A DNA stretch of 64,000 nt from a virus (IMGVR_UViG_3300031951_000093:15994-79993), one strand, 5' to 3'. Positions 201 through 53,680 are shown, counted from the stretch's first letter. Program-made: numbers and translations. The notes: a model not told the origin generated them from the letters alone.

Positions 201-252
201 ATCATAGGGTGCGTTGCCGCCAGGGGGGCGGATCTGTAACAATCTGTTGTAA
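201..252 (-). promoter_or_regulatory. HLR1-like direct repeat + -10 promoter
   Basis: minus strand ACAACAGA-TT-GTTACAGA; TATGAT 34 nt after start of second half-site. Confidence 0.75.
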
Positions 253-267
253 TTGACCTGAGGCATG

Positions 268-291
268 AAAAAGCCCCGAACCTGCGGGGCT
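268..291 (-). terminator. rho-independent terminator
   Basis: GCCCCG-caggtt-CGGGGC followed by TTTTT on minus strand. Confidence 0.8.
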
Positions 292-309
292 GTCGTCAAC
301 GAGCTGTCG

Positions 310-576
310 CTATTTGGCGCGGCGATGATCAAGCGCGTGCATTTCCCATCGCTCGGCATACTCATAAACTCGCTGGAGCATCTGCAGTGCTTCATCACGC
401 TCATTGCGAGCCCGTTGCCATGCGTCGGAACGCTGAGGATAAAAATCCCTTGCATTGCAGGTTGCTGCAACTAAAGCATCAGAGGCTTGGCTAACGGCCT
501 TGCGCACTGCGCGATACTCAGTATATAGGCTATCTGCATCGGTTCCGTTCAGGTGGATTGTTGGAAGGGTGGTCAT
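310..576 (-). CDS. hypothetical phage protein (MTTLPTIHLNGTD...)
   Basis: ORF; start context TGCAAGCCATGACC shared with the ATG at 790; followed by terminator. Confidence 0.75.
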   Translation of the reverse strand: MTTLPTIHLNGTDADSLYTEYRAVRKAVSQASDALVAATCNARDFYPQRSDAWQRARNERDEALQMLQRVYEYAERWEMHALDHRRAK

Positions 577-610
577 GGCTTGCAAGTGAGAAGGTTTGAG
601 CGAAAGGTGG

Positions 611-1165
611 TCAAAATAAGTCAACCAAAAGAGGCCAGTTGGGCATGGAAGGGTCGTAGACCGCTTCAAGAGCCGGCTTAAGGCGCTCCGTTGTGACGCA
701 AAACACGCCACCACCAGGGGTGGGCCAGTCGTGATAGTTCCACCCAACGGAAGTTTGAGCAAGAATCTCTTGGACGGTAGGGGTGGTCATGGCTTGCACA
801 ATAGAAGAGGTAGACCGAGGAGAATTCAAGGGTGAAGCTTGTTGTGGTTGAGCTGTAGCCAAAAAAGGAGCCAAAAAATCCTTGATGTAATCAACCGACT
901 CGCCTTTCGAGGCGAATTGACTGTTAAAAGCCCAATGATATTGCATTAAGCCCTCAAAGGGCTTGTAATCATCTTCGCGATGAATTATCACGATCAATGT
1001 CTCAAATCCTCTTTGACACTGAAAAATTGTGTCTCCGCTTTTTAGCCAATTGTATCTATACGCCGTAAAGGCGGGATGCCATTGAAAAAGATCAATGCAC
1101 CAGCCAGCCGATGCAAGAAGGTCTTGAGCCCTTTGAATTCTATAGGAAGTGAAAGCGTCGGTCAT
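611..1165 (-). CDS. hypothetical protein; last 59 aa (own ATG at 790) paralogous to 21338..21559
   Basis: ORF after promoter at 1215-1265; PTVQEILAQTSVG/LKPALEAVYDPSMPNW resembles PTVEQVLENTAIG/LRPLLESAYDSTCPNW. Confidence 0.65.
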   Translation of the reverse strand: MTDAFTSYRIQRAQDLLASAGWCIDLFQWHPAFTAYRYNWLKSGDTIFQCQRGFETLIVIIHREDDYKPFEGLMQYHWAFNSQFASKGESVDYIKDFLAPFLATAQPQQASPLNSPRSTSSIVQAMTTPTVQEILAQTSVGWNYHDWPTPGGGVFCVTTERLKPALEAVYDPSMPNWPLLVDLF

Positions 1166-1214
1166 GATAGAAGCGCAATTGAGTGCCGGTCGGATCTCTC
1201 CTCCCGATGCACTG

Positions 1215-1265
1215 ATCATAAGACGCAAGGCCAGCGCACGGGATTAACCTGTCGCAATTCGTCAC
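1215..1265 (-). promoter_or_regulatory. HLR1-like direct repeat + -10 promoter
   Basis: GTGACGAA-TT-GCGACAGG, TATGAT at 35 nt, then GGA-GAGA-TCC hairpin. Confidence 0.65.
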
Positions 1266-1306
1266 AAAGCCCACTCAATGCGCTAAACTGCTTAGGCCGA
1301 TACCAA

Positions 1307-1627
1307 ATGGCCATGACTGACTCCCTGCCGTTCGACGCCACCGACACCCCTGATCTGACTGATGATCGCGTGTCTGATGTGATGACACAACTTGATGAAT
1401 GTGAATTTTCGGCGGATGAATATCACAAGCTTGTGGAAACAATTCTGATGTCTTTGGCTGTTAGCTATGAAGACTCTGTTTCTCAAGAAATGGAGCGCGA
1501 GGAAGTTATGTTTTTAACTTCAATGGCAACACGGTTTCAAGGCGCTTATGAATTGATTCATATTGGAGATGACGACGAAGACGATGAAGATGGCGACAAT
1601 GATGACGATTTTGAAGATGATGATTGA
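1307..1627 (+). CDS. highly acidic hypothetical protein
   Basis: ORF with D/E-rich tail, followed by terminator. Confidence 0.7.
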   Translation: MAMTDSLPFDATDTPDLTDDRVSDVMTQLDECEFSADEYHKLVETILMSLAVSYEDSVSQEMEREEVMFLTSMATRFQGAYELIHIGDDDEDDEDGDNDDDFEDDD

Positions 1628-1651
1628 TTGCATCTAGCCAATTCGCAAGAC

Positions 1652-1677
1652 AAGGCTGATAATTGTCAGCCTTTTTT
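1652..1677 (+). terminator. terminator between convergent genes
   Basis: AAGGCTGA-taattg-TCAGCCTT + T run. Confidence 0.7.
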
Positions 1678-2056
1678 ATCGCTTGGGCATATATGAGTGA
1701 AGTTGGTTAATTAATGTCTTTAAGTCATCTTCTGAAAGCGTATCAACAGAATGACCAACTTGTTGCAGCCTGAATCTAGCAGCAACTTGCAATCGCCTCA
1801 TTTGAATAGCTTTTTCAATTTCTTGCTTTTCTTCTTCGGTTGGAATCCACGCAAAAACATGACTCCATGGATCACGACTGCTTCCTCTTAATTCACCATT
1901 TGACTTATTAAATACATGCTTTTCTGTAGCAAACGTTGCCTTGGTTACTTTTGTAACCTCAAGAAGCATGATTGAAGTGCGATCAGTAACAGCAATAATG
2001 TCGCCGATTTTTATGTTTTGAAAGTTTTGGTTTTTCGTTGATTGAAGTAAATTCAT
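1676..2056 (-). CDS. hypothetical phage protein
   Basis: ORF from ATG 2054-2056; TATGAT at 2094-2099 upstream. Confidence 0.7.
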   Translation of the reverse strand: MNLLQSTKNQNFQNIKIGDIIAVTDRTSIMLLEVTKVTKATFATEKHVFNKSNGELRGSSRDPWSHVFAWIPTEEEKQEIEKAIQMRRLQVAARFRLQQVGHSVDTLSEDDLKTLINQLHSYMPKR

Positions 2057-2165
2057 GGAAATAGAAAGGGCTAAACTGCTTACCCTTTCTTGGATCATAG
2101 CGCAGAGCAAAACAACCAGCGCCGTGCTGATGTAAAACTTTACAATTGTAATTGCGTCAAAACAC

Positions 2166-2190
2166 AAAAAAGCCCGGACTTGCCGGGCTT
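2166..2190 (-). terminator. rho-independent terminator
   Basis: AAGCCCGG-caagt-CCGGGCTT + T run. Confidence 0.8.
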
Positions 2191-2211
2191 GATTACAATT
2201 GCGTGAGCTGA

Positions 2212-3192
2212 TCAATTCACCCCACATAACTGCAGAGCGCTGGCCCTGGCTCGTTCGACCACGCGGCTACCCTGCCCCCAGGTGGCAGATTGAAAGCGGG
2301 TGGACAGCTTGCCATCGCGCAAGCTGGTTTCGACTTCCGTCACAGCGTTATATCCGCCCCATACGGTATTCTGAACGCCATCAAAATGTGTCCCATATCC
2401 ACCAGCATAAGCATTACGCAGTTTTTCCCACTTGCGAGGAGAATCTTCAATCGTGCCATGCCTGATACCTTCAGGAGTTGCAACAGATGGCAAGTTATAA
2501 AGATGACCAAGCCATGTTTTATAACTTTCAAAATCCATTGGTGTTTCCGCCATGCGCTTATATTCTTCTACGTGCTTACCAAATGTTTGACGAGCAACGT
2601 CGATATTGCGCATAATTTCATCAATTTGTGCAATACCAATTTTTGTATGATTGACGGAAAACTGCTTGCCAGTTCGTGCGCCATCTGCCTGGGCAAAGCC
2701 TAAAGTATTTTGACAAACAACACGAATATCTGTAAACATTCCGCCAAATGATGTCATTCCATCATGGCCAAGATAACCAACAAAATTACGATGAATTTTG
2801 TCACCTTCAACAATACTTGCATCAGTACCAAGAATTTTGCCGGTAAAGGCAATCTTGGCGCCTTTTTTAAGTACAACCACCGTATCCATAATGATGTCAT
2901 CACGAAGCATTTCAGCCAATTGGCATAATGTTTCGTTTTGGATCAATTCATACTGCGGCGAAACAGTGCCCAAAACTTCATTATTGTCCATACGACAAAC
3001 AGCAACACGTTGGTCAATTTGCTGATAAACGTCTTCGTTCTTAACAAATAGCGGACGCTTTTCGACTTCAAACAATGCGCCAGCGCGAGTGAAAGCCTCG
3101 CGAGCCGGCAAAGTGCCTTCAATGACTTCGCCGAGACCGTGCCAGGCACGCTCGCCATTCATCATGATGCCGGAGTGAAAGTTGTGAGCCAT
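2212..3192 (-). CDS. DUF932 (phage/plasmid-like TIGR03299) family protein
   Basis: AWHGLG N-terminus, YELIQN, HDG, IRVVCQNTL, TVWGGYNAVTE motifs. Confidence 0.9.
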   Translation of the reverse strand: MAHNFHSGIMMNGERAWHGLGEVIEGTLPAREAFTRAGALFEVEKRPLFVKNEDVYQQIDQRVAVCRMDNNEVLGTVSPQYELIQNETLCQLAEMLRDDIIMDTVVVLKKGAKIAFTGKILGTDASIVEGDKIHRNFVGYLGHDGMTSFGGMFTDIRVVCQNTLGFAQADGARTGKQFSVNHTKIGIAQIDEIMRNIDVARQTFGKHVEEYKRMAETPMDFESYKTWLGHLYNLPSVATPEGIRHGTIEDSPRKWEKLRNAYAGGYGTHFDGVQNTVWGGYNAVTEVETSLRDGKLSTRFQSATWGQGSRVVERARASALQLCGVN

Positions 3193-3240
3193 GGTCGTGG
3201 GGATAGGGTTTGCGTCGGGCTTTGTCCGCCTGACTCCCGA

Positions 3241-3291
3241 ATCATATGCGCAGGATGCGACGGGATGGGTGGCCCTGTAACACTCTGTTGT
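3241..3291 (-). promoter_or_regulatory. HLR1-like direct repeat + -10 promoter
   Basis: ACAACAGA-GT-GTTACAGG, TATGAT at 35 nt. Confidence 0.75.
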
Positions 3292-3313
3292 AATCCCCTA
3301 CCAGTCTCCGATC

Positions 3314-3532
3314 TCATGGCACAGGCAATCCGCTTTCCAAGCGATCAAGAACGGCAGGATCTACATAGAAAACCTCCCCTCCTTTGTACAGACACGCTTG
3401 TCCAGGGCGTGGGCCTGGTTGGATCGGGGGAATCAACCGCTCTGCGTCTGCGAGCTGCCTTAAAAATTCTTCAGGGCTAATGCCGCGTGAGGGGTTCATG
3501 GGTTGGCGTTTGGCGTTGGTGGGGTCAGTCAT
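3314..3532 (-). CDS. hypothetical protein
   Basis: ORF overlapping upstream stop in a tight minus-strand operon. Confidence 0.55.
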   Translation of the reverse strand: MTDPTNAKRQPMNPSRGISPEEFLRQLADAERLIPPIQPGPRPGQACLYKGGEVFYVDPAVLDRLESGLPVP

Positions 3533-3710
3533 TGGCATTCTCCTTTTCGTTCTCAAAACGATTCAAAGCTACAAAAAGATACTCAGGTATTTCTTCCCAC
3601 CAACAATTGTCGTAATTCTCAATGCCCCAGTAAAAACGACCGCCTTCTTGTTTTACCTCAAGGTTGCCATAGTAGTTGCCAATAGTCCCAACTTTTCTTA
3701 TGTTAGCCAT
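3525..3710 (-). CDS. hypothetical phage protein (IGNYYGNLEVK...YWGIENYD)
   Basis: ORF coupled to neighbours. Confidence 0.7.
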   Translation of the reverse strand: MANIRKVGTIGNYYGNLEVKQEGGRFYWGIENYDNCWWEEIPEYLFVALNRFENEKENAND

Positions 3711-3918
3711 CGGCCTGCTTCTTGCCTGCCAGTGCGTCACACACGGCCTGCTGATTGGCCGCCACAGCAAGAAGCTCACGCCGGATCTTGCGGCGCTCGC
3801 CCTGGCGCTGGTGATGCGCATCAGCATAAAAGGCCGGAAGATTCTCCTCTTCAGGGAGAACCGCGTCTACCACCAGGCGTATCAGGGGCGCGTAATCGAC
3901 GGGGGCGGGGGTGGTCAT
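3703..3918 (-). CDS. hypothetical protein
   Basis: ORF in operon. Confidence 0.6.
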   Translation of the reverse strand: MTTPAPVDYAPLIRLVVDAVLPEEENLPAFYADAHHQRQGERRKIRRELLAVAANQQAVCDALAGKKQADG

Positions 3919-3934
3919 GAGGGGGCGTGGCGGA

Positions 3935-4108
3935 TTAAAGTGTTGTTGAGTTAAGAAGAATCATTACAACCGCTAAAGACAGTAATTTTATCGGAGGCTG
4001 ATTTGTGCTTCCATGTAAAATCCAATTAAGAATAAACATGGAAATACAAAAGGCGGCAAGTGATTTTAGCAGCCAACTAAGAATCCTGAGGAATTTAAGA
4101 AAATCCAT
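3935..4108 (-). CDS. small two-TM membrane protein
   Basis: two hydrophobic stretches. Confidence 0.5.
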   Translation of the reverse strand: MDFLKFLRILSWLLKSLAAFCISMFILNWILHGSTNQPPIKLLSLAVVMILLNSTTL

Positions 4109-4623
4109 AGTGCGGTGGGGTGGTGTGGTGAATAGATAGCGCATTCTGCGCAGCATCAGCGGCAAGAGAAACGCGCCGATAAGCAGGGCTCCAGCCCCCG
4201 CGGCTTCGGATGTGATCTGCGGCTTCGATTAGGGCAAAGTGAGCGGCTTGCAGGGCTTTTCTTAGATCGGCGGCGGTTGCGTTGGCTGCCATTGGGAAGA
4301 TGCGGTGGGGTAGGGTGGGGTGGGGTGATGTGGCGCCATCACAGATGTCACCAGTATTCATCTCGCTCTCTAAACCAGCGCTTAACATGACGTTGAATGC
4401 GACGGCACTTTTCCTGGCCCTTTCCTGCTACCAGGGGAGGATTGCAAGACTCAGGGCTAAACCTATGACACGAGCCAAGCGGAACCGGATGAATTGACGG
4501 CCAGTCAATCCATGGCCAAGCCATAGTTCTTGCAAAGGATTGGGCGGCAGATTGACAGGCAAAAAGATAATCGGCGTGTTCTGTTTCAACAACGTAAATA
4601 GGCTTGATCATTAGAGGATGTGC

Positions 4624-4663
4624 GGTGGCGTGATGTGAGCCGTCGGAATAGGCCCGGCGGATG
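4624..4663. repeat. 40-bp direct repeat copy 1 (copy 2 at 4960..4999)
   Basis: GGTGGCGTGATGTGAGCCGTYGGAATAGGCCCGGCGGATG, 39/40 identical. Confidence 0.9.
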
Positions 4664-4667
4664 ATAA

Positions 4668-4943
4668 TCAAGAATGCCAAAAGTCAAGGCTTTCTTCGTC
4701 TTGATACCCTTTTCTAAAAGTTCCGGGGGGCAGTGGAAAAATAATCCCCCAAAAACCTTTGTTATAGTCTGAGCGCGTTACTACAAATACTTCTATTTTT
4801 TCATCTTCAAGATCTGGAAAATCTTGCTTGGCTTGTGCCGCTAATTTGTTAATAAAAACTATATCATGTCGATAGCTGTTAAAAGACATAATAATTCCTT
4901 CGCAGCTAGACCGATTGTGAAGAATTCGCTTGTCGTAAGCCAT
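4668..4943 (-). CDS. hypothetical protein flanked by 40-bp repeats
   Basis: AT-rich ORF between repeats. Confidence 0.7.
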   Translation of the reverse strand: MAYDKRILHNRSSCEGIIMSFNSYRHDIVFINKLAAQAKQDFPDLEDEKIEVFVVTRSDYNKGFWGIIFPLPPGTFRKGYQDEESLDFWHS

Positions 4944-4959
4944 GATCTTGGGTGTGTGG

Positions 4960-4999
4960 GGTGGCGTGATGTGAGCCGTTGGAATAGGCCCGGCGGATG
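4960..4999. repeat. 40-bp direct repeat copy 2
   Basis: see copy 1. Confidence 0.9.
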
Positions 5000-5005
5000 G
5001 TGGTG

Positions 5006-5536
5006 TCAGGAATTAACGAATACTGGCCGCTCGCAATTTTCAACGGCCCAGCGTAGCCAATAGGCCAGCCATTCGCCACGGCACAAATTGGGGTCATAGC
5101 GAGGATCATCAACGTAGTCATCAGGGTTATACCAGTTGATGTCATTTTTCTCGATACCCTCTTTCAATGGCGCATACTGAGCGATATGATCTGGATGCTT
5201 TGCTTTGTAAGCGGCAAGACGGCGCTCAACTTCTTCAACATGCTCAATGGTAATCGGCGCCGCTCTTGAGTATTCAGACATTAACGGATACCGCGTATTT
5301 CCATTGATTTCTGTTTCATCTGATCCACCGTTTTTGCTGTCAAACATGATATGCAGCAAGCCAAGGCTTTTCATGCTTTTGTGCCAACCCTTATAAGATG
5401 GCCATCTTTGATTTTCGCAGTCAGTCGGTTCGCCATAGGCTGGAGCATCATCGTGCCTGACTAATTTGCAATTAATTTCTACAGATTCTTCATTGTAATC
5501 TATTGATGCTTCTCCGATTCGCAAGTTGTGTCCCAT
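5006..5536 (-). CDS. hypothetical phage protein (MGHNLRIGEA...WLAYWLRWAVENCERPVFVNS)
   Basis: ORF after promoter at 5643-5702. Confidence 0.75.
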   Translation of the reverse strand: MGHNLRIGEASIDYNEESVEINCKLVRHDDAPAYGEPTDCENQRWPSYKGWHKSMKSLGLLHIMFDSKNGGSDETEINGNTRYPLMSEYSRAAPITIEHVEEVERRLAAYKAKHPDHIAQYAPLKEGIEKNDINWYNPDDYVDDPRYDPNLCRGEWLAYWLRWAVENCERPVFVNS

Positions 5537-5642
5537 GGGTGCGTGCGCAATGGAATAGTGTGCCGAGAATGCCGACAATCTGGCAGGCTCTCGGCGGGCC
5601 AGGGCCTAAGCCCGGAGGAGGCGGTTGCCTCCCAATGCACAC

Positions 5643-5766
5643 ACCCTAACCCCTGCCATCGTGATCTGCGCTGATCCCGTCAAGCATTTCACAATCTGTA
5701 ACAATTGCCAGGCATGTTTCAAATTGCAACAGCATAACCACAAGCGGCGCACATGTGCCATATAAT
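5643..5766. promoter_or_regulatory. back-to-back HLR1-like promoters
   Basis: minus: GTTACAGA-TT-GTGAAATG with TAGGGT at 44 nt; plus: GTTTCAAA-TT-GCAACAGC with TATAAT at 35 nt. Confidence 0.7.
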
Positions 5767-5772
5767 GATTTT

Positions 5773-5890
5773 CGAGGGGGAGACACCTCGCAAAACATAG
5801 TCCTCCGGTAACAGCTCACACGGCCGGATACCAATCGAGAGCAACATGGCCTGAATAAGCCTCTATTGCTGGTTGGGCCGGCATTAAATT
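5773..5890 (+). ncRNA. candidate small structured RNA
   Basis: promoter with perfect TATAAT, no usable ORF before the convergent gene, three hairpins. Confidence 0.45.
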
Positions 5891-5894
5891 TTTG

Positions 5895-6365
5895 TTATGA
5901 TTTTGAAGTAATTTGTGATGCCTCTCCACGCTTCGCCATGCGATCATAAAGAATTACATTAACAGTTGCAGCTAAATTCATGCAATAATGTGTAGGAACA
6001 TATATTATATCCTGGCACCATTCAATGGTTTTGATTCCCAGTGTGCTATCTTCCGGGCCAAAAATATAAAACGCACGCTCAGGGTGAGTGTATTCAGGTA
6101 ATGGTGTTGCGCCATCAATTAAATCAACCGCTACAGGCACAGCGCCATAAGGTACAACATCGCGCAGATCAGTGCATTCAATTAGTGGTGTATGGCGATG
6201 CTGTTTTTGTGTATCTACACAAGAAGGGCTAAACCTTTTGCCGGATATACATATAAGCGATGCACCATAACAACCTGCGGCACGCAATACACTACCTACA
6301 TTAGCTGCTGTTTTAGGCTGATGAAGACCAATCGCAGCATAACCACGATGAAGGTTTGTGATCAT
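5895..6365 (-). CDS. SpoU/TrmH-family (SPOUT) RNA methyltransferase
   Basis: NVGSVLRAAGCYG, YIFGPED, CMNLAATVNVILYDR motifs. Confidence 0.88.
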   Translation of the reverse strand: MITNLHRGYAAIGLHQPKTAANVGSVLRAAGCYGASLICISGKRFSPSCVDTQKQHRHTPLIECTDLRDVVPYGAVPVAVDLIDGATPLPEYTHPERAFYIFGPEDSTLGIKTIEWCQDIIYVPTHYCMNLAATVNVILYDRMAKRGEASQITSKS

Positions 6366-6386
6366 TAGTTGAAGCGTTAAAAATGC

Positions 6387-6436
6387 AATCTACAGTGATC
6401 AGCGCTTTGCCGGCAAAATCCGTAACACATCGTTAC
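6387..6436 (-). promoter_or_regulatory. HLR1-like direct repeat + -10 promoter
   Basis: GTAACGAT-GT-GTTACGGA, TAGATT at 34 nt. Confidence 0.55.
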
Positions 6437-6512
6437 GCTGCGCATTGCAGTGATCTGTTACAATAGAACACGAGTCACAGCACTAGCCACTCAGAACCCT
6501 GCCTTCTCCCTT

Positions 6513-7238
6513 ATGGATCCACGTTTTCGCGTTGAAATCATCGCTCAAACGCCTAATCCCCAGCAGTGCATGTATGCCGCAATGCATCAGGATTATAGTG
6601 AAGGTTTTGTGTATGATGAGCGTGATAAATGGCCGGATGAAACTAAAGCTGGGGAGATCTGTGTTAAGCGATTATTGAATGGAGAACGTGGGCATTATGG
6701 AATACTGGAGCATCAGCAAATTATCCTTAATTGTGGGTACTTTCCCCATTCCGTAATGCAGCAAGCTCGGACACACAGGGTAGGCGTAAGTATGGATTGT
6801 CAGTCGATGCGTTATACTGGAGATCGTATCTGCAGAGCTGCTAGTGGCGAATTACATCTTGAAGATGTATTCTATTTGCGGCCATTGGGTCATTATACTG
6901 ACCGTCAAGGCAAAAAATATGAATACACACACAATCAGCGCGGAGAAGATCTTCATATCTGCAGCGTCGCTGCTGAACGCTATCGCAACCTAATCGAAGC
7001 CGGATACGCTGAAGAACACGCACGCGGAATCCTTCCCTTTGATTATAGGCAGCACTTTGTAGTTAGCTTTAATGCGCGATCATTTATGCACTTCCTTGAT
7101 TTGCGTGCAAAATTAGATGCTCAGCTAGAAATCAGACAGCTTTGTGATCTGATGTGGCCGCATTTCAAGGCTTGGGTGCCGCAAATTGCGGAATGGTATG
7201 AAAAGGCGCGATTGCATAAGGCACGGTTGGCGCCATAA
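6513..7238 (+). CDS. thyX: FAD-dependent thymidylate synthase (cyanobacterial type)
   Basis: GHYGILEH, QARTHRVGVSMDCQSMRY, DAQLEIR motifs. Confidence 0.95.
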   Translation: MDPRFRVEIIAQTPNPQQCMYAAMHQDYSEGFVYDERDKWPDETKAGEICVKRLLNGERGHYGILEHQQIILNCGYFPHSVMQQARTHRVGVSMDCQSMRYTGDRICRAASGELHLEDVFYLRPLGHYTDRQGKKYEYTHNQRGEDLHICSVAAERYRNLIEAGYAEEHARGILPFDYRQHFVVSFNARSFMHFLDLRAKLDAQLEIRQLCDLMWPHFKAWVPQIAEWYEKARLHKARLAP

Positions 7239-7243
7239 GGATT

Positions 7244-7293
7244 GTTTCAATTTGTAACCGCTTAGGTGATGGCGTGCAAGGCAGGCTTATGAT
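7244..7293 (+). promoter_or_regulatory. HLR1-like direct repeat + -10 promoter
   Basis: GTTTCAAT-TT-GTAACCGC, TATGAT at 34 nt, then hairpin. Confidence 0.7.
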
Positions 7294-7344
7294 TGCGTGT
7301 GAAGGGCGGCACAGATTTATGGCTGCCTTCTTTTGAAAAGCATC

Positions 7345-7509
7345 ATGAATTCACAAGCCTTAAAAAAAGGAATCATTTGCTGGGTTTCTACCGTAACCGG
7401 CAAGACTGGGCATGGTAAACCGCTATCTCTTGAGGATGCCAATCGCCTGGCTCGCCAAGCCAACGCAAAAAATCCCCTAATTATTTACACAGTCAAAGAG
7501 GTGCAATGA
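7345..7509 (+). CDS. small hypothetical protein (MNSQALKKGIICWVSTVTGKTGHG...)
   Basis: 54-aa ORF read manually; ATGA overlap with next gene. Confidence 0.65.
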   Translation: MNSQALKKGIICWVSTVTGKTGHGKPLSLEDANRLARQANAKNPLIIYTVKEVQ

Positions 7510-12446: not shown

Positions 12447-12520
12447 ATCTTAGCAGCCTTTTGAGATCTGCGTAACGATTCGTAACGAGTTGCGCAAGGC
12501 TTGTGGTTGGGTGCTATGGT
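12447..12520. promoter_or_regulatory. divergent promoter region with CGTAACGA direct repeat
   Basis: CGTAACGA at 12471 and 12481; TAAGAT (minus, 12447-12452) and TATGGT (plus, 12515-12520). Confidence 0.55.
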
Positions 12521-13295: not shown

Positions 13296-13368
13296 GGCGG
13301 CCTAGCAATCTGGAGAATGCAGTGGCCTCATAAGCCTCCGAAGGTGGGTCCGATTCCCACGGCCGCCA
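13296..13368 (+). tRNA. tRNA with CAT anticodon (elongator Met or Ile2)
   Basis: acceptor GGCGGCC/GGCCGCC-A, loop CTCATAA, T arm GTGGG-TCCGATT-CCCAC (TCC instead of TTC). Confidence 0.8.
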
Positions 13369-13543: not shown

Positions 13544-14263
13544 ATGGCAAAAAGTAATGTTTGGGATATAAATTGCGGCCATAGTTCACGGAATAAAGAA
13601 AGCAAAGAAGCTTATCGGCGCTTTAGGATTTACCTTGAGATGGGTCCATCGCGTAACGTAAACAAGCTGTCTTCGATATTGAAAATACCAAGACAAAATC
13701 TTTATGTTCAAGCAAAAACATATAGCTGGGCCGATAGAGTCGAAGCCTATGATACTTATATCGCAAAAGCGAATCAAATAGATAGCATGAATAAAATGGT
13801 GGATGGCCTATCGCCATTACCTGAAGTTAATGTTTTGACGCCAGATCCTGAAGTAATAAACCCTGACGTGATTGACTATAATGCAATGACGGCAAAACCA
13901 GATAGGCATACGCAAGAAATTAGCTTATATCAAAGACAATTTAAGGGCATTGGTCAAAGTTTAGCTAATGAAGCGCTTGCTACATTGGAACTTGCTAAAG
14001 ACTGTCGGGAAGTAATTCAGCAAGATGCAGAGCGATATAAAAAAGCAGTAGAAGATGGTGCACATGACAAAGCATTAAGCATTGCAAAGCGTATATCTGA
14101 AAAGATTAAGCAATACACTATGCTTGGTGGTTTAGCTGTAAACTATGGCAACAGCAGTCGTACACTCTGGGGCGATGCGATCGGGATCAATACCGTGCTA
14201 CAGTGTTTCTATACTATGCAACAAAATGTTAAGAGTGGCGCGAAGGGTGGAAAGCGTGGGTAA
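13544..14263 (+). CDS. putative terminase small subunit
   Basis: ESKEAYRRFRIYLEMGPSR...YSWADRVEAYD resembles a common TerS N-terminal HTH. Confidence 0.55.
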   Translation: MAKSNVWDINCGHSSRNKESKEAYRRFRIYLEMGPSRNVNKLSSILKIPRQNLYVQAKTYSWADRVEAYDTYIAKANQIDSMNKMVDGLSPLPEVNVLTPDPEVINPDVIDYNAMTAKPDRHTQEISLYQRQFKGIGQSLANEALATLELAKDCREVIQQDAERYKKAVEDGAHDKALSIAKRISEKIKQYTMLGGLAVNYGNSSRTLWGDAIGINTVLQCFYTMQQNVKSGAKGGKRG

Positions 14264-14266
14264 GAT
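14218..14266 (+). promoter_or_regulatory. HLR1-like direct repeat + -10 promoter
   Basis: GCAACAAA-AT-GTTAAGAG, TAAGAT at 33 nt. Confidence 0.55.
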
Positions 14267-15134: not shown

Positions 15135-15135
15135 T

Positions 15136-15185
15136 GTTTCAAATTGTTAAAACAGCTAGCCGTCTGATTGTGTTAGTCTTATCGT
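15136..15185 (+). promoter_or_regulatory. HLR1-like direct repeat + -10 promoter
   Basis: GTTTCAAA-TT-GTTAAAAC, TATCGT at 34 nt. Confidence 0.7.
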
Positions 15186-19996: not shown

Positions 19997-19998
19997 TT

Positions 19999-20085
19999 AC
20001 AACAGAATGTGAAGATTTTCCGCGAAAAGGGGCAGGTGGTGGCCTTGTGGGATAGGATGTGTTCATCGGGGGAGAGATCCTCCGC
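19999..20085 (+). promoter_or_regulatory. HLR1-like repeat, -10 and GAGA hairpin
   Basis: ACAACAGA-AT-GTGAAGAT, TAGGAT at 44 nt, CGGGGGA-GAGA-TCCTCCG. Confidence 0.6.
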
Positions 20086-20430: not shown

Positions 20431-20485
20431 GCGATATAAGATCTCACCCCAGCCATGCTGGGGTTTTGCATGTTTTGATTCGATT

Positions 20486-20563
20486 ACAACAGATTGTTAC
20501 AGATCCCTCCAGTTGCCGGATGTGTGCCCTATAGTAAGTGCATCGAAGGCAGAGATGCTTTCT
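20486..20563 (+). promoter_or_regulatory. HLR1-like repeat, -10 and GAGA hairpin
   Basis: ACAACAGA-TT-GTTACAGA, TATAGT at 34 nt, GAAGGCA-GAGA-TGCTTTC. Confidence 0.8.
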
Positions 20564-20779: not shown

Positions 20780-20842
20780 TCCCGGCTAATCGCCGTCTCA
20801 CTGCCCTTCAACCGAAGGGCTTTTTCATGTTTTAGTTTGATT

Positions 20843-20919
20843 GCAACAGTTTGTTACAAGCTGATTCCGCTCTGTGATGCGTGCCCTATAGTGAGTTCAT
20901 CGAGAGCAGAGATGCTTTC
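20843..20919 (+). promoter_or_regulatory. HLR1-like repeat, -10 and GAGA hairpin
   Basis: GCAACAGT-TT-GTTACAAG, TATAGT at 34 nt, GAGAGCA-GAGA-TGCTTTC. Confidence 0.8.
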
Positions 20920-21157: not shown

Positions 21158-21230
21158 TGCATGTGTGCAAGCAGTTGTTTTAGCCAATCACCCCCGGTCA
21201 TGCCGGGGTTTTTTATGCTTTGAAATAATT

Positions 21231-21310
21231 ACAACAGTTTGTTACGAGTTGGCGCCAGTGTCGTGGCTCGTGCTCTATGATGTTTGTATCGAAGGCAGAG
21301 ATGACCTTCG
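21231..21310 (+). promoter_or_regulatory. HLR1-like repeat, -10 and GAGA hairpin
   Basis: ACAACAGT-TT-GTTACGAG, TATGAT at 35 nt, CGAAGGCA-GAGA-TGaCCTTCG. Confidence 0.8.
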
Positions 21311-28836: not shown

Positions 28837-28964
28837 TTAGCGGCTCGTCATGGCAAGCAATATGGTGTTTATTTGTGTCCACATTGTGATGGCACACATT
28901 TAACTACCAAACTTGAAAATGCTGATTTATACGAGCCGTTACTTTATGTAACATCTTGAGCAGT

Positions 28965-29038
28965 GTTACGGATTGTTTCAACGCCAGCCATCAGCAGACT
29001 TGATGGCTGATAATTAGTTCACGGGGCAGAGATGCTCC
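28965..29038 (+). promoter_or_regulatory. HLR1-like repeat, -10 and GAGA hairpin
   Basis: GTTACGGA-TT-GTTTCAAC, GATAAT at 34 nt, GGGGCA-GAGA-TGCTCC. Confidence 0.8.
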
Positions 29039-29678: not shown

Positions 29679-29707
29679 TTGTATCAAGATGAACAGTTGG
29701 TGAGTTT

Positions 29708-29782
29708 GTTTCAAATTGTTACGACTGGCTTGTGAGTTGCCATCTATGCCCTATGGTGAGTTCACAGGGGCAGAGATGCCCC
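29708..29782 (+). promoter_or_regulatory. HLR1-like repeat, -10 and GAGA hairpin
   Basis: GTTTCAAA-TT-GTTACGAC, TATGGT at 34 nt, GGGGCA-GAGA-TGCCCC. Confidence 0.8.
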
Positions 29783-30046: not shown

Positions 30047-30107
30047 CACACTTGCAAACATGCTTTGCCCCGGCCGATCCGGGGCTTTTTTATGTCTATG
30101 CAGAAGT

Positions 30108-30192
30108 GTTACAGGTTGTGACAATCCTGTTTCAATCCTTTCTCTGTTAGGCCTGTTGGGTTATAATACGAGCACAGGGGCAGAGATGCCCC
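30108..30192 (+). promoter_or_regulatory. triple HLR1-like repeat, -10 and GAGA hairpin
   Basis: GTTACA/GTGACA/GTTTCA, TATAAT at 30162, GGGGCA-GAGA-TGCCCC; terminator about 30067-30091 upstream. Confidence 0.8.
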
Positions 30193-31185: not shown

Positions 31186-31571
31186 TGCAACAAATCAAAA
31201 TGAAGAAAGCAATCAACAAGCGTAAGATTGCTTCATCCGCCAGGCGTGATCCTGGTACGTTGATTCAATTTGGGGCATATATTTTCCCAATCAATGATAT
31301 AGCAAGAATTGAGGATAAAGTTAAAAAATTGTACGATCATGAATCGGATCAGCAGATAGGGTGGACATTTTCTGTCGTATTGAAAAATGGTGATATTTTA
31401 TTGTGGGAAATTGACGAAAGAGACTATGACGACCAAGAAGCTTTGATGGATTATTATACTCAATCGAAGGAGTACGCCGAAGCATTACGAATTGCAACAA
31501 TTCAGCTTGTGTGGGGATCAGACGTTACAATAGTGAGGCCCGAAGACACTATCCATGACGACTCCGTTTGA
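31185..31571 (+). CDS. hypothetical protein
   Basis: coupled ORF; IFPINDIARI similar to IFPLKDIQRV in next gene. Confidence 0.65.
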   Translation: MQQIKMKKAINKRKIASSARRDPGTLIQFGAYIFPINDIARIEDKVKKLYDHESDQQIGWTFSVVLKNGDILLWEIDERDYDDQEALMDYYTQSKEYAEALRIATIQLVWGSDVTIVRPEDTIHDDSV

Positions 31572-36346: not shown

Positions 36347-36356
36347 CGGGAAAACT
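36347..36356 (+). promoter_or_regulatory. late promoter motif CGGGAAAACT (also 37927, 42652, 42862, 44957, 45875, 49270, 54123, 62147)
   Basis: recurs 27-39 nt upstream of late/structural gene starts. Confidence 0.7.
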
Positions 36357-39399: not shown

Positions 39400-39415
39400 T
39401 GGGTTCAATGCAGTG

Positions 39416-39485
39416 GATGGGTCTCCCCACGACCAAATAATACACCATCATCCCATGGCCCCGGAAAAATGAAACAAGCTGTAAC
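39416..39485 (-). promoter_or_regulatory. HLR1-like repeat, -10 and GAGA hairpin
   Basis: GTTACAGC-TT-GTTTCATT, TATTAT at 33 nt. Confidence 0.75.
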
Positions 39486-39511
39486 ATAGGCAGATCAACC
39501 GCCGATAACCC

Positions 39512-41407: not shown

Positions 41408-41409
41408 TT

Positions 41410-41490
41410 GTTGCGGTTTGTTACGGTGGGACACTGATGAGCTGCTTGTGTTGTATGGTATGAATGCTAGAGCAATCCAGCGCTAGCATT
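41410..41490 (+). promoter_or_regulatory. HLR1-like repeat, -10 and 5' hairpin
   Basis: GTTGCGGT-TT-GTTACGGT, TATGGT at 34 nt, AATGCTAG/CTAGCATT stem. Confidence 0.75.
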
Positions 41491-44904: not shown

Positions 44905-44953
44905 ATCGTAAACCATCGCGGCCAACCCTCTGATGATTGCAACAAAATGAAAC
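44905..44953 (-). promoter_or_regulatory. HLR1-like repeat + -10 promoter
   Basis: GTTTCATT-TT-GTTGCAAT, TACGAT at 33 nt. Confidence 0.65.
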
Positions 44954-44989
44954 AATCGGGAAAGCTACAGTATGTAACCCAATCTTCTC

Positions 44990-45874: not shown

Positions 45875-45907
45875 CGGGAAAGCTACAGTATGTAACCCAA
45901 TCTTCTC

Positions 45908-47068
45908 ATGCCACGCGGTCGCCGCCGTACTCAATACGTTAGGGATGCTTCAGGGCAGTTTGCCTCGACTCCCGGCGGTGGCCCGTCCAAATCCTCACCA
46001 TCGGCCGTCAGGAAGGCCGCTAAGGCCGCTGCCTTGAAGGGTGGCACGTTAGCCGCTAGAACCTCCCTAAAGAGATCCAAGGCCAAGCTAGCAGCATCTC
46101 CCAGTCCCCAGCAAAAAGGCGCCGTAACTCGTGGACAAAAAGCCGCCCGCGCTGCGATCAAATCCAGCAAAACAAGGCTAAAAACAGGCTCAGAGTCTAA
46201 ACTTCGCAAGGGTCTGGCAACAACTCTTTTGACGATGGCGAAGAGCAAGCCCAAAGCGAAACCTGTTGAAGCAAAATCTACCACAAAAGCAAAATCTACT
46301 GCTAAAGCAAAGCCCACTACAAAAACAAAGAAGACCACCACTAAAGCGCAGCCTACGCAGAAAAAAGTAGAAACAAAGCCTAAAACATCAAAGAAAGTAG
46401 AAGTAAAGCAAGTCGATAAAAAGCCGCTGGCCAGGAAGGAGAATCTTGCCGCACAACGCGCTAAGCGAATGGCAGAAAAAACAGGAGTGATTCCTGGCAG
46501 CAAGTTTGAAAGTGGCCAGGCCGTTAAAACAATGAGCCTGAAGGAAATGCGTAGTGCTGTGATTAAGTCTGTCAAAGGAGCAGGCAAGCTTTCAATGGCC
46601 GCAATTGCGGTTGGGGCTGGCACGGGAACAGGTATATCGAGGATAGAATCAGGCCGAATGCCCAAGACGCGCAGTGAGTGGGAAAGGGCCTATCGCGCTT
46701 TGGTAAGGCTGCCCATGAGTGACAGGGGAAGAAAAGAGAAGCCTGGTGTTATCAACGGCATTGATATTCACAAAAACTTTAGGCCATGGGCTGTTTTTGG
46801 ATTGAACCCCAAGACGGCAAGTAAGGCTGATGTAGAACAAGCCTACCGAAGGATAGCAAAAAAGGTGCATCCTGATGCTGGTGGTCGTCAAAAAGATTTT
46901 GAACGGATTAAGTCTATGCGTGACTCGATCGTTTCAATGAGAAACATAGGTGAACAGATGAAGATCGACGCCAAAAAAAGTAGCCCTAAAACTAGCTCAA
47001 AAGCCAAGAAAAAATCTCAATCTAGAGCCAGGCCTTCTATGCTAATGCTGCCGCCATCCAGATCGTAA
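45908..47068 (+). CDS. highly basic protein, paralog 3, with C-terminal J-domain
   Basis: PWAVFGL...DVEQAYRRIAKKVHPDAGG...FERI. Confidence 0.85.
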   Translation: MPRGRRRTQYVRDASGQFASTPGGGPSKSSPSAVRKAAKAAALKGGTLAARTSLKRSKAKLAASPSPQQKGAVTRGQKAARAAIKSSKTRLKTGSESKLRKGLATTLLTMAKSKPKAKPVEAKSTTKAKSTAKAKPTTKTKKTTTKAQPTQKKVETKPKTSKKVEVKQVDKKPLARKENLAAQRAKRMAEKTGVIPGSKFESGQAVKTMSLKEMRSAVIKSVKGAGKLSMAAIAVGAGTGTGISRIESGRMPKTRSEWERAYRALVRLPMSDRGRKEKPGVINGIDIHKNFRPWAVFGLNPKTASKADVEQAYRRIAKKVHPDAGGRQKDFERIKSMRDSIVSMRNIGEQMKIDAKKSSPKTSSKAKKKSQSRARPSMLMLPPSRS

Positions 47069-50224: not shown

Positions 50225-51352
50225 TTATTGCTTGACTTGAATCGGCATGATCAAATACGTGGACAAGTTATCATCACTATCTGAATCTGTAATTACTGCT
50301 GGAGTTACAGGTGTATTGCAGCTTAATACAATTCGTTCGCATTTCAATGCTTTAACAGCATCTGTTAGATATTTCACGTTAAACGCTATTTCAAGCGGCT
50401 TACCTTCTAGATCCATGGCAAGCTGCTCGGACGCCTTCCCGCCATCCGCATCAGCTCGAATGGACATCATGCCCTGCTCATCGTTAAAGGCGATCCTGAC
50501 GGCATTGCTACCGTTGGATGCCATGGCCGCAATAGTGCCGACTCGGCCCAGGGAAAGAGCAAAAGCTTTTCGATCAATTATCACTGATGTTGTAAAGCTT
50601 TTTGGAATCAACTGCTCAACATTGGGATATGCCCCAGCAAACGATCGCGTAGTAATAGTTGTTGCGCCAGACTTTATGATTAATTGATCGCGAAATTTAG
50701 ATGGCGTAATGCTAATCTCTTCATCAGAAAGCCCAGCTATCTCCTTCATTGGAGCGATTGGAATTGTTAGATCAAGATCAGCAAGTGCATTAATTTTGTC
50801 ACTAGGCACGGCAAATGCTGCAACGCCAAGGCGATGGCCATCGGTGGCGGCGCAGCGAATTGTATTGCCAATTGTTTTAATGTTAACCCCCATCAAGATC
50901 TGTTTTGCTTCATCAGTGCTGCAACAAAAAGATACACTACTGGTAATCTTGTTTAACTCTGCCGCTGGCAGCAAAATTGAATCACCCTGAATAACAGGAA
51001 AATCAGGAAAATCAATCGGATCTGACGCTGACAGCTCGTAATTCCCTGACAATGACGATATGGTAAACCTTTCTTCTTCTAGGGAGAGAGATACAGGGCT
51101 GTCAGATGGAAGCTTTGATACAATCTCGTGCAAAAGCTTGTAATTCACAGCGGTAGATCCTGGCTGACCAACTTGCGCCAGAATCTTGGTCTCAATACCA
51201 AGATTCAAGTCAAATCCTGTTAGGATCAGCGATCCTTCTTCTGCCTTGAGCAAAACATTGGTCAGGATTGGGTGGCTGGCTCGACTGGGGACGGCACGTC
51301 CGCAGGCGGTTAGCGCACGGGAGAACTCAGCCTGTGAAACGATCAATTCCAT
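50225..51352 (-). CDS. dnaN: DNA polymerase III beta sliding clamp
   Basis: HPILTNVLL, TGFDL, AATDGHRL, YPNVEQLIP, IAFNVKYL, YLIMP. Confidence 0.95.
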   Translation of the reverse strand: MELIVSQAEFSRALTACGRAVPSRASHPILTNVLLKAEEGSLILTGFDLNLGIETKILAQVGQPGSTAVNYKLLHEIVSKLPSDSPVSLSLEEERFTISSLSGNYELSASDPIDFPDFPVIQGDSILLPAAELNKITSSVSFCCSTDEAKQILMGVNIKTIGNTIRCAATDGHRLGVAAFAVPSDKINALADLDLTIPIAPMKEIAGLSDEEISITPSKFRDQLIIKSGATTITTRSFAGAYPNVEQLIPKSFTTSVIIDRKAFALSLGRVGTIAAMASNGSNAVRIAFNDEQGMMSIRADADGGKASEQLAMDLEGKPLEIAFNVKYLTDAVKALKCERIVLSCNTPVTPAVITDSDSDDNLSTYLIMPIQVKQ

Positions 51353-51534
51353 TGAGATGGGAGCGAATAGAAGTGGGGGTGGGGCTGATCAGGACCAGCA
51401 ATGAAGGCCCGGATCTGATCACTGTGAACACGAGCCACCCATGCCGAAACAGGCATGGTGACTATCAAAAAGCCTAGCAGCATCTGCCAGTGAATTTTGG
51501 ATTGTGTCTTTATGTAACGGCGTGAGCGCGTCAT
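51343..51534 (-). CDS. small membrane protein
   Basis: TM segment, ATGA coupling. Confidence 0.5.
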   Translation of the reverse strand: MTRSRRYIKTQSKIHWQMLLGFLIVTMPVSAWVARVHSDQIRAFIAGPDQPHPHFYSLPSQWN

Positions 51535-51869
51535 AGCGAAGCCAGCAGGCAAGAGTGTAGGTAATTGATAGTATTTTCGCGTGCATTATTGGCAATTTGT
51601 TGATCAATAGCATTAAGCACTGTGGTCTTGACTGAATCAATAAAGACCTTTGGAGTGCTCGCTATATTAATACCTAAAACCTGATGCAACGAAATATCGC
51701 TTAATTTAACAGTATCAACACGACTTACAAGACCACAAGCTCCTTCGATGCAAAATTTATGGCTAATACCTGGCAAATCTCCGATCTCAATAAGCCAATC
51801 AACTTCCATGGATTTATTTCTCCAGCACAAAGGGCCAATTACGCCATGGTCTGAGGTGATCTCAATCAT
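51531..51869 (-). CDS. hypothetical protein
   Basis: coupled ORF. Confidence 0.6.
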   Translation of the reverse strand: MIEITSDHGVIGPLCWRNKSMEVDWLIEIGDLPGISHKFCIEGACGLVSRVDTVKLSDISLHQVLGINIASTPKVFIDSVKTTVLNAIDQQIANNARENTINYLHSCLLASL

Positions 51870-52527
51870 GTGCAGTACGGGGGTGTTGTTTGGTTTTGCC
51901 CGATCGAAAATGCCGAGCACGCTTAAATGTTAGACCAAGGCACGCTATGGTTTCTCCAGTTACAATAGAATGCTGGATTCTACTTGCGGAAACATTTAAG
52001 TGACTAGCTGCTATTGATGCGCTACTCCATTCCTGACCAGTCTCCACGCATGTCACCGTGTAAAGCGACTTCTTTGGACAAGACAAGTAATCTTTTATTG
52101 AATCAATAACATCCATGTCTTCTATTACCGCATACAAGTCATCACGCGAAACACCATGAAATAGTTCTGGGCGTAAACGCGCCAGTCGCGCTAGATTCTT
52201 TCTTTCGACATACCAAAAACAATGCTTGACGGGCTTAAGAATGGCTTTTGTGTCAGTCTTTTTTGTTAGCTGCTCAATAGACCATCTGCTCCATTTAAGC
52301 ATTCTTCCTGCATCAACTAATCTAATAATTGATGAATCCTCCACCATTATTGAAAGGCTTAGTTCTTCGCATTTATTCGTGATTGAATAACGTGTCCTTG
52401 TTGGCCACTTGCGCCGCCTTGCTGTTTGATTGTATCGTTTTATAGCGGAACAAAACGGGTACTCGCCAATGATTGACCGCAGGTAGTCAACTTCTTGTGT
52501 TGACCATTTGAATACTTTCTTTCCCAT
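51862..52527 (-). CDS. DNA-binding protein with NUMOD1-like C-terminus
   Basis: WSTQEVDYL; VTCVETGQEWSSASIAASHLNV. Confidence 0.6.
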   Translation of the reverse strand: MGKKVFKWSTQEVDYLRSIIGEYPFCSAIKRYNQTARRRKWPTRTRYSITNKCEELSLSIMVEDSSIIRLVDAGRMLKWSRWSIEQLTKKTDTKAILKPVKHCFWYVERKNLARLARLRPELFHGVSRDDLYAVIEDMDVIDSIKDYLSCPKKSLYTVTCVETGQEWSSASIAASHLNVSASRIQHSIVTGETIACLGLTFKRARHFRSGKTKQHPRTAHD

Positions 52528-52530
52528 GGC

Positions 52531-53289
52531 TTAATTAAACACCCATGCCCAGCCACTGTTGGGACCTTCAACAAGCCAACGTGGATTCATGTTTTTGTAG
52601 CTATAATGTAATCTCATGCCATGAATACCTCCAGCTTTAACAAAGCCACCATTAACCAGATCTTGTTCGCCATAGGGATCATGCACAATCCATCCTTTTT
52701 CAGTGTATCCAATAATAGTAATATAATGACCACCGCCAGTGGGCCTTGTCACGGGACCATTGTGTAACATTCCAATGGCAACGGGACGACCATTGCTAAT
52801 TTCCTGCTTGACCATATCTGCCGAGCAATTTGTGATGAAACGATGCTTGACACCCAGATGATGCAAAGCGTTTTGAACACTTGCCTGATTTGTTACATCA
52901 CCATATTGCTTGACTAACTTAACAAAATAATTATCATCGACAATCCCGGGTTCATCTTGTTTTTTGACCTTCAAATAGTTTAGGCACATAGATATTGACG
53001 TAGGCTGACATTCTCTCCATCCTTCAGGGCCATTATCGCCCTGGGCAAAATAATGAACTATCAACGGATTCGGAAAGCTTGGCGATGGCGCTGGCGGGGC
53101 CGGGGGGACAGAGGGAGAAAAGGCCTTAGCCCATGGTGCGTCTTCCCTAAGAATTTGATCCGCAGAAGCACCATCTTTGATTGCTTGATACAGCAATCGA
53201 ACGCCATCTTTCTGATGGCTTAGATTTGAATAGGCTTCAAAGCGATCTAAAAACCGCTCAAATGACAATGACATGTTCATAGGTTCCAC
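52531..53289 (-). CDS. C39-like peptidase, probable endolysin
   Basis: YFAQGDN..WRECQPTS, GGGHYITIIGY, HDPYG. Confidence 0.8.
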   Translation of the reverse strand: MEPMNMSLSFERFLDRFEAYSNLSHQKDGVRLLYQAIKDGASADQILREDAPWAKAFSPSVPPAPPAPSPSFPNPLIVHYFAQGDNGPEGWRECQPTSISMCLNYLKVKKQDEPGIVDDNYFVKLVKQYGDVTNQASVQNALHHLGVKHRFITNCSADMVKQEISNGRPVAIGMLHNGPVTRPTGGGHYITIIGYTEKGWIVHDPYGEQDLVNGGFVKAGGIHGMRLHYSYKNMNPRWLVEGPNSGWAWVFN

Positions 53290-53416
53290 AGTGAAACTGT
53301 CTCCCAGCCGAGAGAGTGAAGTCGTTCGAGTTCTGATTGCTCAGATCCTGGCGACACATCATAGACTACAGGCAATCCTACCGCTAGAGGGGGCGGATTA
53401 ACAGGTTCTTCACAAA

Positions 53417-53608
53417 TCAGTCTAATTTGATCGTGCATGGCGCCTTGGGGAGTGATTGTCTCATGGCCCATAGCGTAGCAGCCTTCTGGGCGTGCCATGC
53501 TTGCGCGAGCTGAGCGCATAGGCTCCGCAAGTTTTCAATGTCTGGCTCTTCCTGAATAACGCGCAACTGTCTCTCAAGTTCAAATTTTTGCGACAATGAC
53601 AATTCCAT
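53417..53608 (-). CDS. nblA: phycobilisome degradation adaptor NblA-like
   Basis: ELSLSQKFELER...LRSLCAQLAQAWHAQKAATLWAMRQ resembles picocyanobacterial/phage NblA. Confidence 0.75.
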   Translation of the reverse strand: MELSLSQKFELERQLRVIQEEPDIENLRSLCAQLAQAWHAQKAATLWAMRQSLPKAPCTIKLD

Positions 53609-53631
53609 TGAAAATCTTGCATTGCCTTGCC

Positions 53632-53680
53632 ATATTACTCGAAATATCCTAAAATAAACCGATCTGTAACAATTTGAAAA
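53632..53680 (-). promoter_or_regulatory. HLR1-like repeat + -10 promoter upstream of nblA
   Basis: TTTTCAAA-TT-GTTACAGA, TAATAT at 33 nt. Confidence 0.65.

Follow-up and report, generated by a model that had tools for sequence, protein, structure and literature searches.

The DNA analysed here, a stretch of 64,000 nucleotides (nt) referred to below as the window, comprises bases 15994-79993 of a 79,993-bp IMG/VR virus record that is rated complete (IMGVR_UViG_3300031951_000093). It carries a series of promoters in which a box of two TGTTACA-like heptamers in tandem is followed, at a fixed distance, by a -10 hexamer. The gene set is of the siphovirus type. The gene for the large terminase (terL, 33800-35452) is followed by that of a sigma-70 region 2 protein (35449-36339), here called the phage sigma factor, and further along lie the genes for the portal (36382-37923), a MuF-like protein (39512-41407) and the tape measure (54153-58580). 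A DnaN clamp (dnaN, 50225-51352) is encoded by the last gene of a minus-strand operon, and there is a DUF932 gene at 2212-3192. Also encoded are a class II ribonucleotide reductase, ThyX, a thymidylate kinase, RusA, a replication initiator and two tRNAs on the plus strand, tRNA-Met(CAT) at 13296-13368 and tRNA-Thr(TGT) at 29606-29678, the latter directly upstream of the box promoter at 29707. A DNA search with the structural region against cultured phages gave no match.

The window contains 22 box promoters. A preliminary description, made from the sequence alone, had listed 21 of them, and every one was found where it had been placed and on the strand it had been given; the site at 31483-31531(+) was added by a matrix scan. 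At each site the first bases of the two heptamers are 10 bp apart, as had been described. The hexamer had been put 33-35 nt from the G of the proximal half-site, which corresponds to 33-36 nt from the T of the proximal TGTTACA, and a TAnnnT hexamer does begin at this offset in 18 of the 22 sites (binomial tail 3e-17). The single GATAAT was also found, at offset 35 in the promoter at 28964. A longer form of the promoter exists too, with the hexamer 45 nt from the T, at three sites (5703(-), 19998(+) and 30107(+)) rather than the two originally proposed; the spacings of 35 and 45 nt thus differ by exactly one helical turn. Nothing is conserved between the box and the -10, and there is therefore no -35 element, again in agreement with the earlier view.

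Each promoter is given below with its heptamers and the bases between them, its hexamer, and the offset of the hexamer from the proximal T. On the minus strand there are promoters at 201..251(-) (TACAACA-GAT-TGTTACA, TATGAT, offset 35), for a leftward early operon, at 1215..1266(-) (TGTGACG-AAT-TGCGACA, TATGAT, 36) and at 3241..3292(-) (TACAACA-GAG-TGTTACA, TATGAT, 36), the last of these before the DUF932 gene. The long-form promoter 5643..5703(-) (TGTTACA-GAT-TGTGAAA, TAGGGT, 45) is divergent from 5715..5766(+) (TGTTTCA-AAT-TGCAACA, TATAAT, 36), and 6387..6437(-) (CGTAACG-ATG-TGTTACG, TAGATT, 35) stands before a SpoU-type methylase gene. The plus strand then carries 7243..7293(+) (TGTTTCA-ATT-TGTAACC, TATGAT, 35), 12471..12520(+) (CGTAACG-ATT-CGTAACG, TATGGT, 34), which is divergent from the replication-initiator gene, 14217..14266(+) (TGCAACA-AAA-TGTTAAG, TAAGAT, 34) and 15135..15185(+) (TGTTTCA-AAT-TGTTAAA, TATCGT, 35). 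The second long-form promoter, 19998..20058(+) (TACAACA-GAA-TGTGAAG, TAGGAT, 45), is followed by three promoter cassettes, each with a terminator upstream: 20485..20535(+) (TACAACA-GAT-TGTTACA, TATAGT, 35; terminator just upstream), 20842..20892(+) (TGCAACA-GTT-TGTTACA, TATAGT, 35; terminator 20803-20820) and 21230..21281(+) (TACAACA-GTT-TGTTACG, TATGAT, 36; terminator 21192-21208). Next come 28964..29014(+) (TGTTACG-GAT-TGTTTCA, GATAAT, 35), 29707..29757(+) just past tRNA-Thr (TGTTTCA-AAT-TGTTACG, TATGGT, 35), the third long-form promoter at 30107..30167(+) (TGTTACA-GGT-TGTGACA, TATAAT, 45; terminator 30067-30085 upstream) and the added promoter 31483..31531(+) (CATTACG-AAT-TGCAACA, TACAAT, 33). 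The promoter 39437..39486(-) (TGTTACA-GCT-TGTTTCA, TATTAT, 34) lies within the late region, with a 78-amino-acid open reading frame (ORF) at 39172-39408. It is followed by 41409..41459(+) (TGTTGCG-GTT-TGTTACG, TATGGT, 35), by 44905..44954(-) (TGTTTCA-TTT-TGTTGCA, TACGAT, 34), for small minus-strand genes, and by 53632..53681(-) (TTTTTCA-AAT-TGTTACA, TAATAT, 34), which belongs to the minus-strand operon ending with dnaN. Extra pairs of TGTAACA/TGTTACA-like half-sites were seen at 28937-28953 and 6446-6462, beside the boxes at 28964 and 6437; neither pair keeps the 10-bp phase of the main box.

Allowing two mismatches at most, the strict consensus TGTTACANNNTGTTACA is found 13 times in the 80-kb genome compared to once for a reversed-pattern control. 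With a matrix built from the sites, 26 matches reach 12 bits or more, where dinucleotide-shuffled sequence yields 2.5; when each site is scored with itself left out of the matrix the values run from 8 to 26 bits, the weakest box being 12471..12520(+) at 8 bits. The spacing was also counted over all boxes scoring 14 bits or more in three genomes, this one and those of two relatives, with no -10 required. Here TAnnnT is found at offsets 34-36 in 45 of the 64 boxes and at 45 in 6, while the remaining offsets are near the background of about 1.2. The relatives are the complete genomes G002 and G003, whose portal proteins are 80% and 75% identical to that of this phage; the box, spacing and -10 are kept at 17 and 20 sites respectively, whereas the spacers between box and -10 diverge freely. 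A conserved -10, the lack of a -35 and a fixed, helically phased upstream site characterise the activator-dependent, -35-less class of sigma-70 promoters, and all of these features were found. The 22 sites very probably represent a single, real and well-defined promoter class.

Pooling 61 sites gives the repeating unit A-T-T-G-T-(T/A)-A-C-A-(A/G) (ATTGTWACAR) in direct tandem. Because the half-site TGTnACA is nearly palindromic, direct and inverted symmetry were compared explicitly. The correlation between the two units is 0.92 overall, and at the positions which discriminate between the two arrangements it is 0.90 for the direct and 0.38 for the inverted one. Direct tandem 10-bp units are the geometry of head-to-tail dimers of OmpR/PhoB-type winged-helix proteins. 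By inspection, the box is neither an NtcA site (GTA-N8-TAC) nor a CRP-type site (TGTGA-N6-TCACA); for both the spacing is wrong, and the repeat is direct rather than inverted.

The sites are intergenic or at the ends of genes. At many of them the sequence gT(G/T)CA(T/C) occurs about 6 nt past the -10, and its A was taken as the predicted start site; all sites but one face a start codon 3-86 nt beyond this point, the exception being 5715(+), which has no ORF start (of at least 40 codons) within 200 nt downstream. A 5'-proximal hairpin follows the predicted start; at 7 sites out of the 22 its stem, of at least 4 pairs and variable in sequence, is capped by a GAGA loop. On the plus strand these GAGA hairpins are at 20067-20084, 20545-20562, 20902-20919, 29023-29038, 29767-29782 and 30177-30192, belonging to the promoters at 19998, 20485, 20842, 28964, 29707 and 30107, and on the minus strand there is one at 39404-39417. 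The stems differ in sequence yet stay paired; GAGA hairpins are also present at many box sites of G002 and G003, and other box promoters have 5' hairpins with other loops. Since several promoters lie directly past strong terminators, they form cassettes of terminator, box, promoter, hairpin and gene. No part of the window's first 40 kb has more ordinary -35/-10 promoters than shuffled sequence does, and thus there is no other recognisable early promoter set.

The preliminary description had called the promoter set genome-wide. This is too broad, as the late structural genes carry another motif, CGGGAAAACT, which precedes the genes for portal, head, tail and tape measure at a distance of 25-35 nt from their start codons. 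Copies are found on the plus strand at window positions 36347, 37927, 42862, 44957, 45875, 49270, 54123 and 62147, and also within G000 1114-7812. There are 7-9 exact copies in genomes of the box-bearing clade and 15-16 in those of a sister clade (G035, G038 and G040; loci L241-L251), which has about 32-34 proteins in common with this phage (TerL 65-69% identical in these three, 65-73% in the clade) and keeps the sigma gene at 44% identity. In both clades the motif and the sigma gene go together, and on the simplest reading CGGGAAAACT probably marks the late promoters that the phage sigma factor reads. The box promoters do not behave as targets of that factor: the sister clade keeps the sigma gene and CGGGAAAACT and has no box class. 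Their host-like -10 suggests instead that they would be read by the host polymerase. The genome is accordingly seen to have two parts, an early and middle one with box promoters on both strands and a late one with the sigma-type motif on one strand; within the late part four box promoters drive non-structural inserts, including the dnaN operon. The promoter at 31483 appears, from the order of the genes downstream, to head a block running to the terminase and sigma genes. Two adjacent late genes, 44990-45874 and 45908-47068, share a near-identical stretch of about 70 nt (44957-45030 and 45875-45950, both +). It takes in the late motif and leader as well as the first codons, and points to duplication of a gene start.

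A picocyanobacterium is the probable host, to judge from the DnaN clamp, the order of terL and the sigma gene, a cyAbrB domain and, as a fourth ground, the G+C content of related phages. Among named cellular organisms, the clamp is nearest to those of picocyanobacteria such as Synechococcus, Cyanobium and Prochlorococcus, at 40-44% identity. The terminase is nearest, among cultured phages, to those of the cyanosiphoviruses S-CBS2, S-CRES1-3 and P-SS2 (35-36% identity), and the gene order terL then sigma factor is common to this phage and these viruses. The cyAbrB-type domain (PF14250, E 2e-21) is in a 160-amino-acid phage protein encoded before the window, at genome coordinates 11653-12135 (-) (G000:C1, L022). 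Among 14 control genomes the PF14250 family was present in Synechococcus elongatus only, and a tblastn search of 50,697 records from cultured phages gave no match to the phage protein, which may be the phage version of a global regulator of cyanobacteria. Its gene is present in both clades, which differ in G+C content, that of the box-bearing clade being 46% and that of the sister clade 64%; the latter value is one we take to be in the range of Cyanobium-type picocyanobacteria. Around 25 proteins, most without a family, are common to the three box-bearing phages and missing from the sister clade. Also found in these three phages and not in the sister clade is a very basic protein of 91 amino acids, belonging to phrog_7595 and encoded at 25099-25374(+).

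In the preliminary description the boxes were likened to the high light regulatory 1 (HLR1) motif of cyanobacteria, and RpaB of the host was named as the early activator. HLR1 consists of two (G/T)TTACA(T/A)(T/A) octamers separated by a 2-base gap; the consensus of the 61 pooled sites, GTTACA-R-A-TT repeated twice, fits (G/T)TTACA(T/A)(T/A)NN with the same 10-bp period. RpaB acts as an activator where the centre of the motif falls in the range -66 to -45 (peak near -51) and as a repressor where the motif overlaps the start site (PMC6525291). If transcription starts 7 nt past the -10, the predicted centre of the phage box is at -47.5 in 19 sites and at -57.5 in the 3 long-form sites, which in both cases would be within the activating range. 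In candidate hosts canonical HLR1, at up to 2 mismatches, is not above control overall; its best matches lie directly before hli genes, and some have a GCAACA distal half like that of several phage sites. Since HLR1 has the same core, period and orientation as the phage box, and an activating range that takes in the predicted position of the latter, RpaB is the best candidate for the activator, and we give this reading a probability of about 0.5. Of the original proposal, the promoter class, the HLR1 consensus, the predicted activating position and the probable host are supported; the binder may be another protein.

On this reading the sites would serve an uncultured phage, of siphovirus type and infecting picocyanobacteria, as its early and middle promoters; they would be sigma-70-type promoters with a TATgaT -10 and no -35. 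An activator bound as a head-to-tail dimer to the two 10-bp units (ATTGTWACAR) would replace the -35 contact and recruit the host RNA polymerase; the box would occupy a single helix face at about -57 to -40, and in three promoters one turn further upstream. The activator would most likely be an OmpR-family response regulator of the host, with RpaB favoured. Transcription from the promoter at 31483 would reach the terminase and sigma genes, and the sigma factor would then turn on the late genes from CGGGAAAACT.

Several observations weigh against RpaB. Individual sites in the window have 2-7 mismatches at the 16 specified positions of HLR1 (median 4-5), which is a loose fit, and at repeat position 7 G is as common as A whereas HLR1 has A/T. 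In five picocyanobacterial genomes the box in its strict phage form is no commoner than the control. Further, in 20 picocyanobacteria the region upstream of psaA, over about 600 nt, gave neither HLR1 (at up to 3 mismatches) nor the phage-type box, which leaves no host promoter of the activating class for a comparison of spacing. The candidate hosts encode 4-12 OmpR-type regulators, and most early phage proteins match no family and could hide a DNA binder. To our knowledge RpaB is universal in cyanobacteria, and yet there is no excess of boxes and no box promoter class in the sister clade, nor any box excess in 13 cultured cyanophages (S-CBS1 to S-CBS4, S-CRES2, P-SS2, S-PM2, Syn9, P-SSM2, S-CRM01, S-RSM4, Mel-JY01 and Ma-LMM01). 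A crude k-mer and spaced-repeat search of the sister clade gave no alternative early motif; CTACGAC, which is enriched there, turned out to be coding sequence.

Alternatively, the tandem boxes could be bound by an activator that the phage encodes, either a small early protein or the cyAbrB-like one, and their likeness to HLR1 would be coincidental or a mimicry that competes with RpaB. Such a binder is conceivable because so many of the early proteins lack a family. The confinement of the box to one narrow clade, without it in the sister clade and the cultured relatives, fits a phage protein, as do the roughly 25 clade-specific proteins described above; in addition, the phage units conserve an extra T before each G and TT at the N2 of HLR1, a form that is not enriched in hosts. 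Bacillus AbrB, for its part, is reported to prefer pairs of TGGNA with roughly 10-bp phasing. However, the cyAbrB-like protein does not track the boxes: the sister clade, which has none, retains it at 46-51% identity. The cyAbrB-like gene is itself within an operon driven by two box promoters. Nor is there a second recognisable early promoter set from which any such activator could be made first, and no OmpR-type winged-helix DNA-binding domain was found in this phage or its two relatives. We consider a phage-encoded binder unlikely. A host regulator of the OmpR family other than RpaB, for example RpaA or a lineage-specific one, is another proposal: tandem 10-bp units are generic for the family, the candidate hosts have 4-12 such regulators to offer and single sites fit canonical HLR1 loosely; but GTTACA at a 10-bp period is the published site of RpaB and the position of the box matches the activating range of that protein. 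The Pho boxes of cyanobacterial PhoB have an 11-bp period, which also counts against another OmpR-type regulator, and we judge this possibility to be distinctly improbable.

Since the phage encodes a sigma-70 region 2 protein, it could be that this factor reads the box promoters, with the box serving as an upstream extension of its recognition element. From the end of the box to the -10, however, there are 27-29 nt, which is beyond the reach of region 4, and the -10 is the host-like TATgaT. The sigma gene itself lies downstream of one of the box promoters, and in the sister clade, which lacks the boxes, the motif conserved along with that gene is CGGGAAAACT, found before the structural genes; a role of the phage sigma factor at the boxes is therefore very hard to credit. 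Lastly, the boxes might not be activator sites at all but repressor operators, replication iterons or the remnants of mobile terminator-promoter cassettes. Several of the terminator-box-promoter-hairpin cassettes are indeed stereotyped and look duplicated, and extra half-sites are clustered near 28937 and 6446. On the other hand, the spacing to the -10 is fixed and has a one-turn variant, the -35 is missing, the box is kept while the spacer diverges, and the sites extend over 53 kb on both strands and, with the exception of 5715(+), point at genes; there is very little chance that elements with these properties serve no activator.

The same box occurs outside this group of phages. A scan of IMG/VR for the perfect tandem TGTTACARWTTGTTACA returned at least 116 contigs. 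Among the matches listed, several unrelated records have 6-14 near-perfect and mostly co-oriented boxes with zero control matches; the unrelated box-rich records are G050, G052, G053, G077, G079, G080 and G085 (loci L310, L312, L314, L356, L358, L359 and L367). One such record is a 169-kb genome rated 95% complete, and one has a weak DNA match to a Microcystis phage. Their TGTTACA-N3-TGTTACA boxes fit canonical HLR1 exactly, and in contigs L328, L318 and L310 the boxes lie just upstream of full or near-full promoters of the TTGACA / TATAAT type. No psbA was found in five of the records (G050, G052, G077, G079 and G080), and no OmpR-type domain in a wider set of box-rich unrelated records. Of 80 unrelated contigs picked out, among the matches listed, by the box motif and nothing else, 5 encode the phrog_7595 protein; it is missing from the box-rich unrelated records, and was therefore rejected as a common binder. 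The presence of one box in several unrelated phages, with no common phage protein found, leans towards host factors but is not proof of them.

Cyanophage infection has long been known to depend on light, and the molecular link from light to phage transcription is poorly understood. If the boxes are RpaB sites, they would provide a simple and directly testable mechanism joining the light state of the host to the transcription of the phage. The early and middle promoters, and hence the sigma factor and the late genes, would work only with the regulator in its DNA-binding form. We suggest, tentatively, that RpaB, an essential light/redox regulator of the host that also acts in clock output, gates the whole pre-late programme in its phosphorylated form, so that infection would start or stall with the photosynthetic state of the host, and that the same trick has been adopted independently in several unrelated phages; what would come under this control, again as a tentative assignment, is replication, nucleotide metabolism, the small-gene cassettes and the phage sigma factor. 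With an OmpR-type regulator as binder, the 22 promoters, with their varied box quality and two helical phasings, would also form a compact natural set for the study of activation without a -35. Should the binder prove to be of phage origin, it would count as a new activator, one able to recognise or mimic the site of a master regulator of the host.

A parallel in another phage is given by the middle promoters of T4, where a MotA box, together with AsiA, likewise takes the place of the -35 beside a host-type -10; in T4 a phage protein recognises the box, whose centre is at -30, whereas the present box, a tandem repeat, is at about -47 and no activator of phage origin was found. Proteobacterial OmpR/PhoB sites are similarly built from tandem 10- or 11-bp units with a conserved AC and are bound head-to-tail by winged-helix proteins, but they belong to another group of organisms and often overlap the -35. 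Within cyanophages, host PhoB controls pstS and phoA through a Pho box, and NtcA sites are known. As proposed here, a site for a host regulator (PhoB an OmpR-type response regulator, NtcA of the CRP family) stands before phage genes and ties their expression to host physiology; in those cases it serves a few auxiliary metabolic genes and here most early and middle transcription units. Another close system is the HLR1 of the RpaB regulon in its activating class, at the photosystem I promoters of Synechocystis (Riediger et al. 2019, PMC6525291): it has the same direct repeats with a GTTACA core and 10-bp period, the same placement upstream of the would-be -35 (predicted centre in -66 to -45) and belongs to the cyanobacterial lineage of the probable host. 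In comparison the phage sites are more degenerate, have a frequent G at repeat position 7 and conserve the T before each G and TT in the spacer, and with around 22 copies in 64 kb they are the main promoter class of a virus rather than a regulon of photosynthesis genes. HLR1 motifs in cyanophage genomes, likewise a host RpaB site on phage DNA, receive a mention in PMC6525291, which cites a 2018 review. Our literature searches gave no paper describing the present promoter class. As HLR1 sites in cyanophages have already been mentioned and control of cyanophage genes by host PhoB is known, the principle is not new; what is new is its scale and role, in that essentially all the early and middle units of a cyanosiphovirus carry one box, in a scheme that feeds a sigma cascade of the phage.

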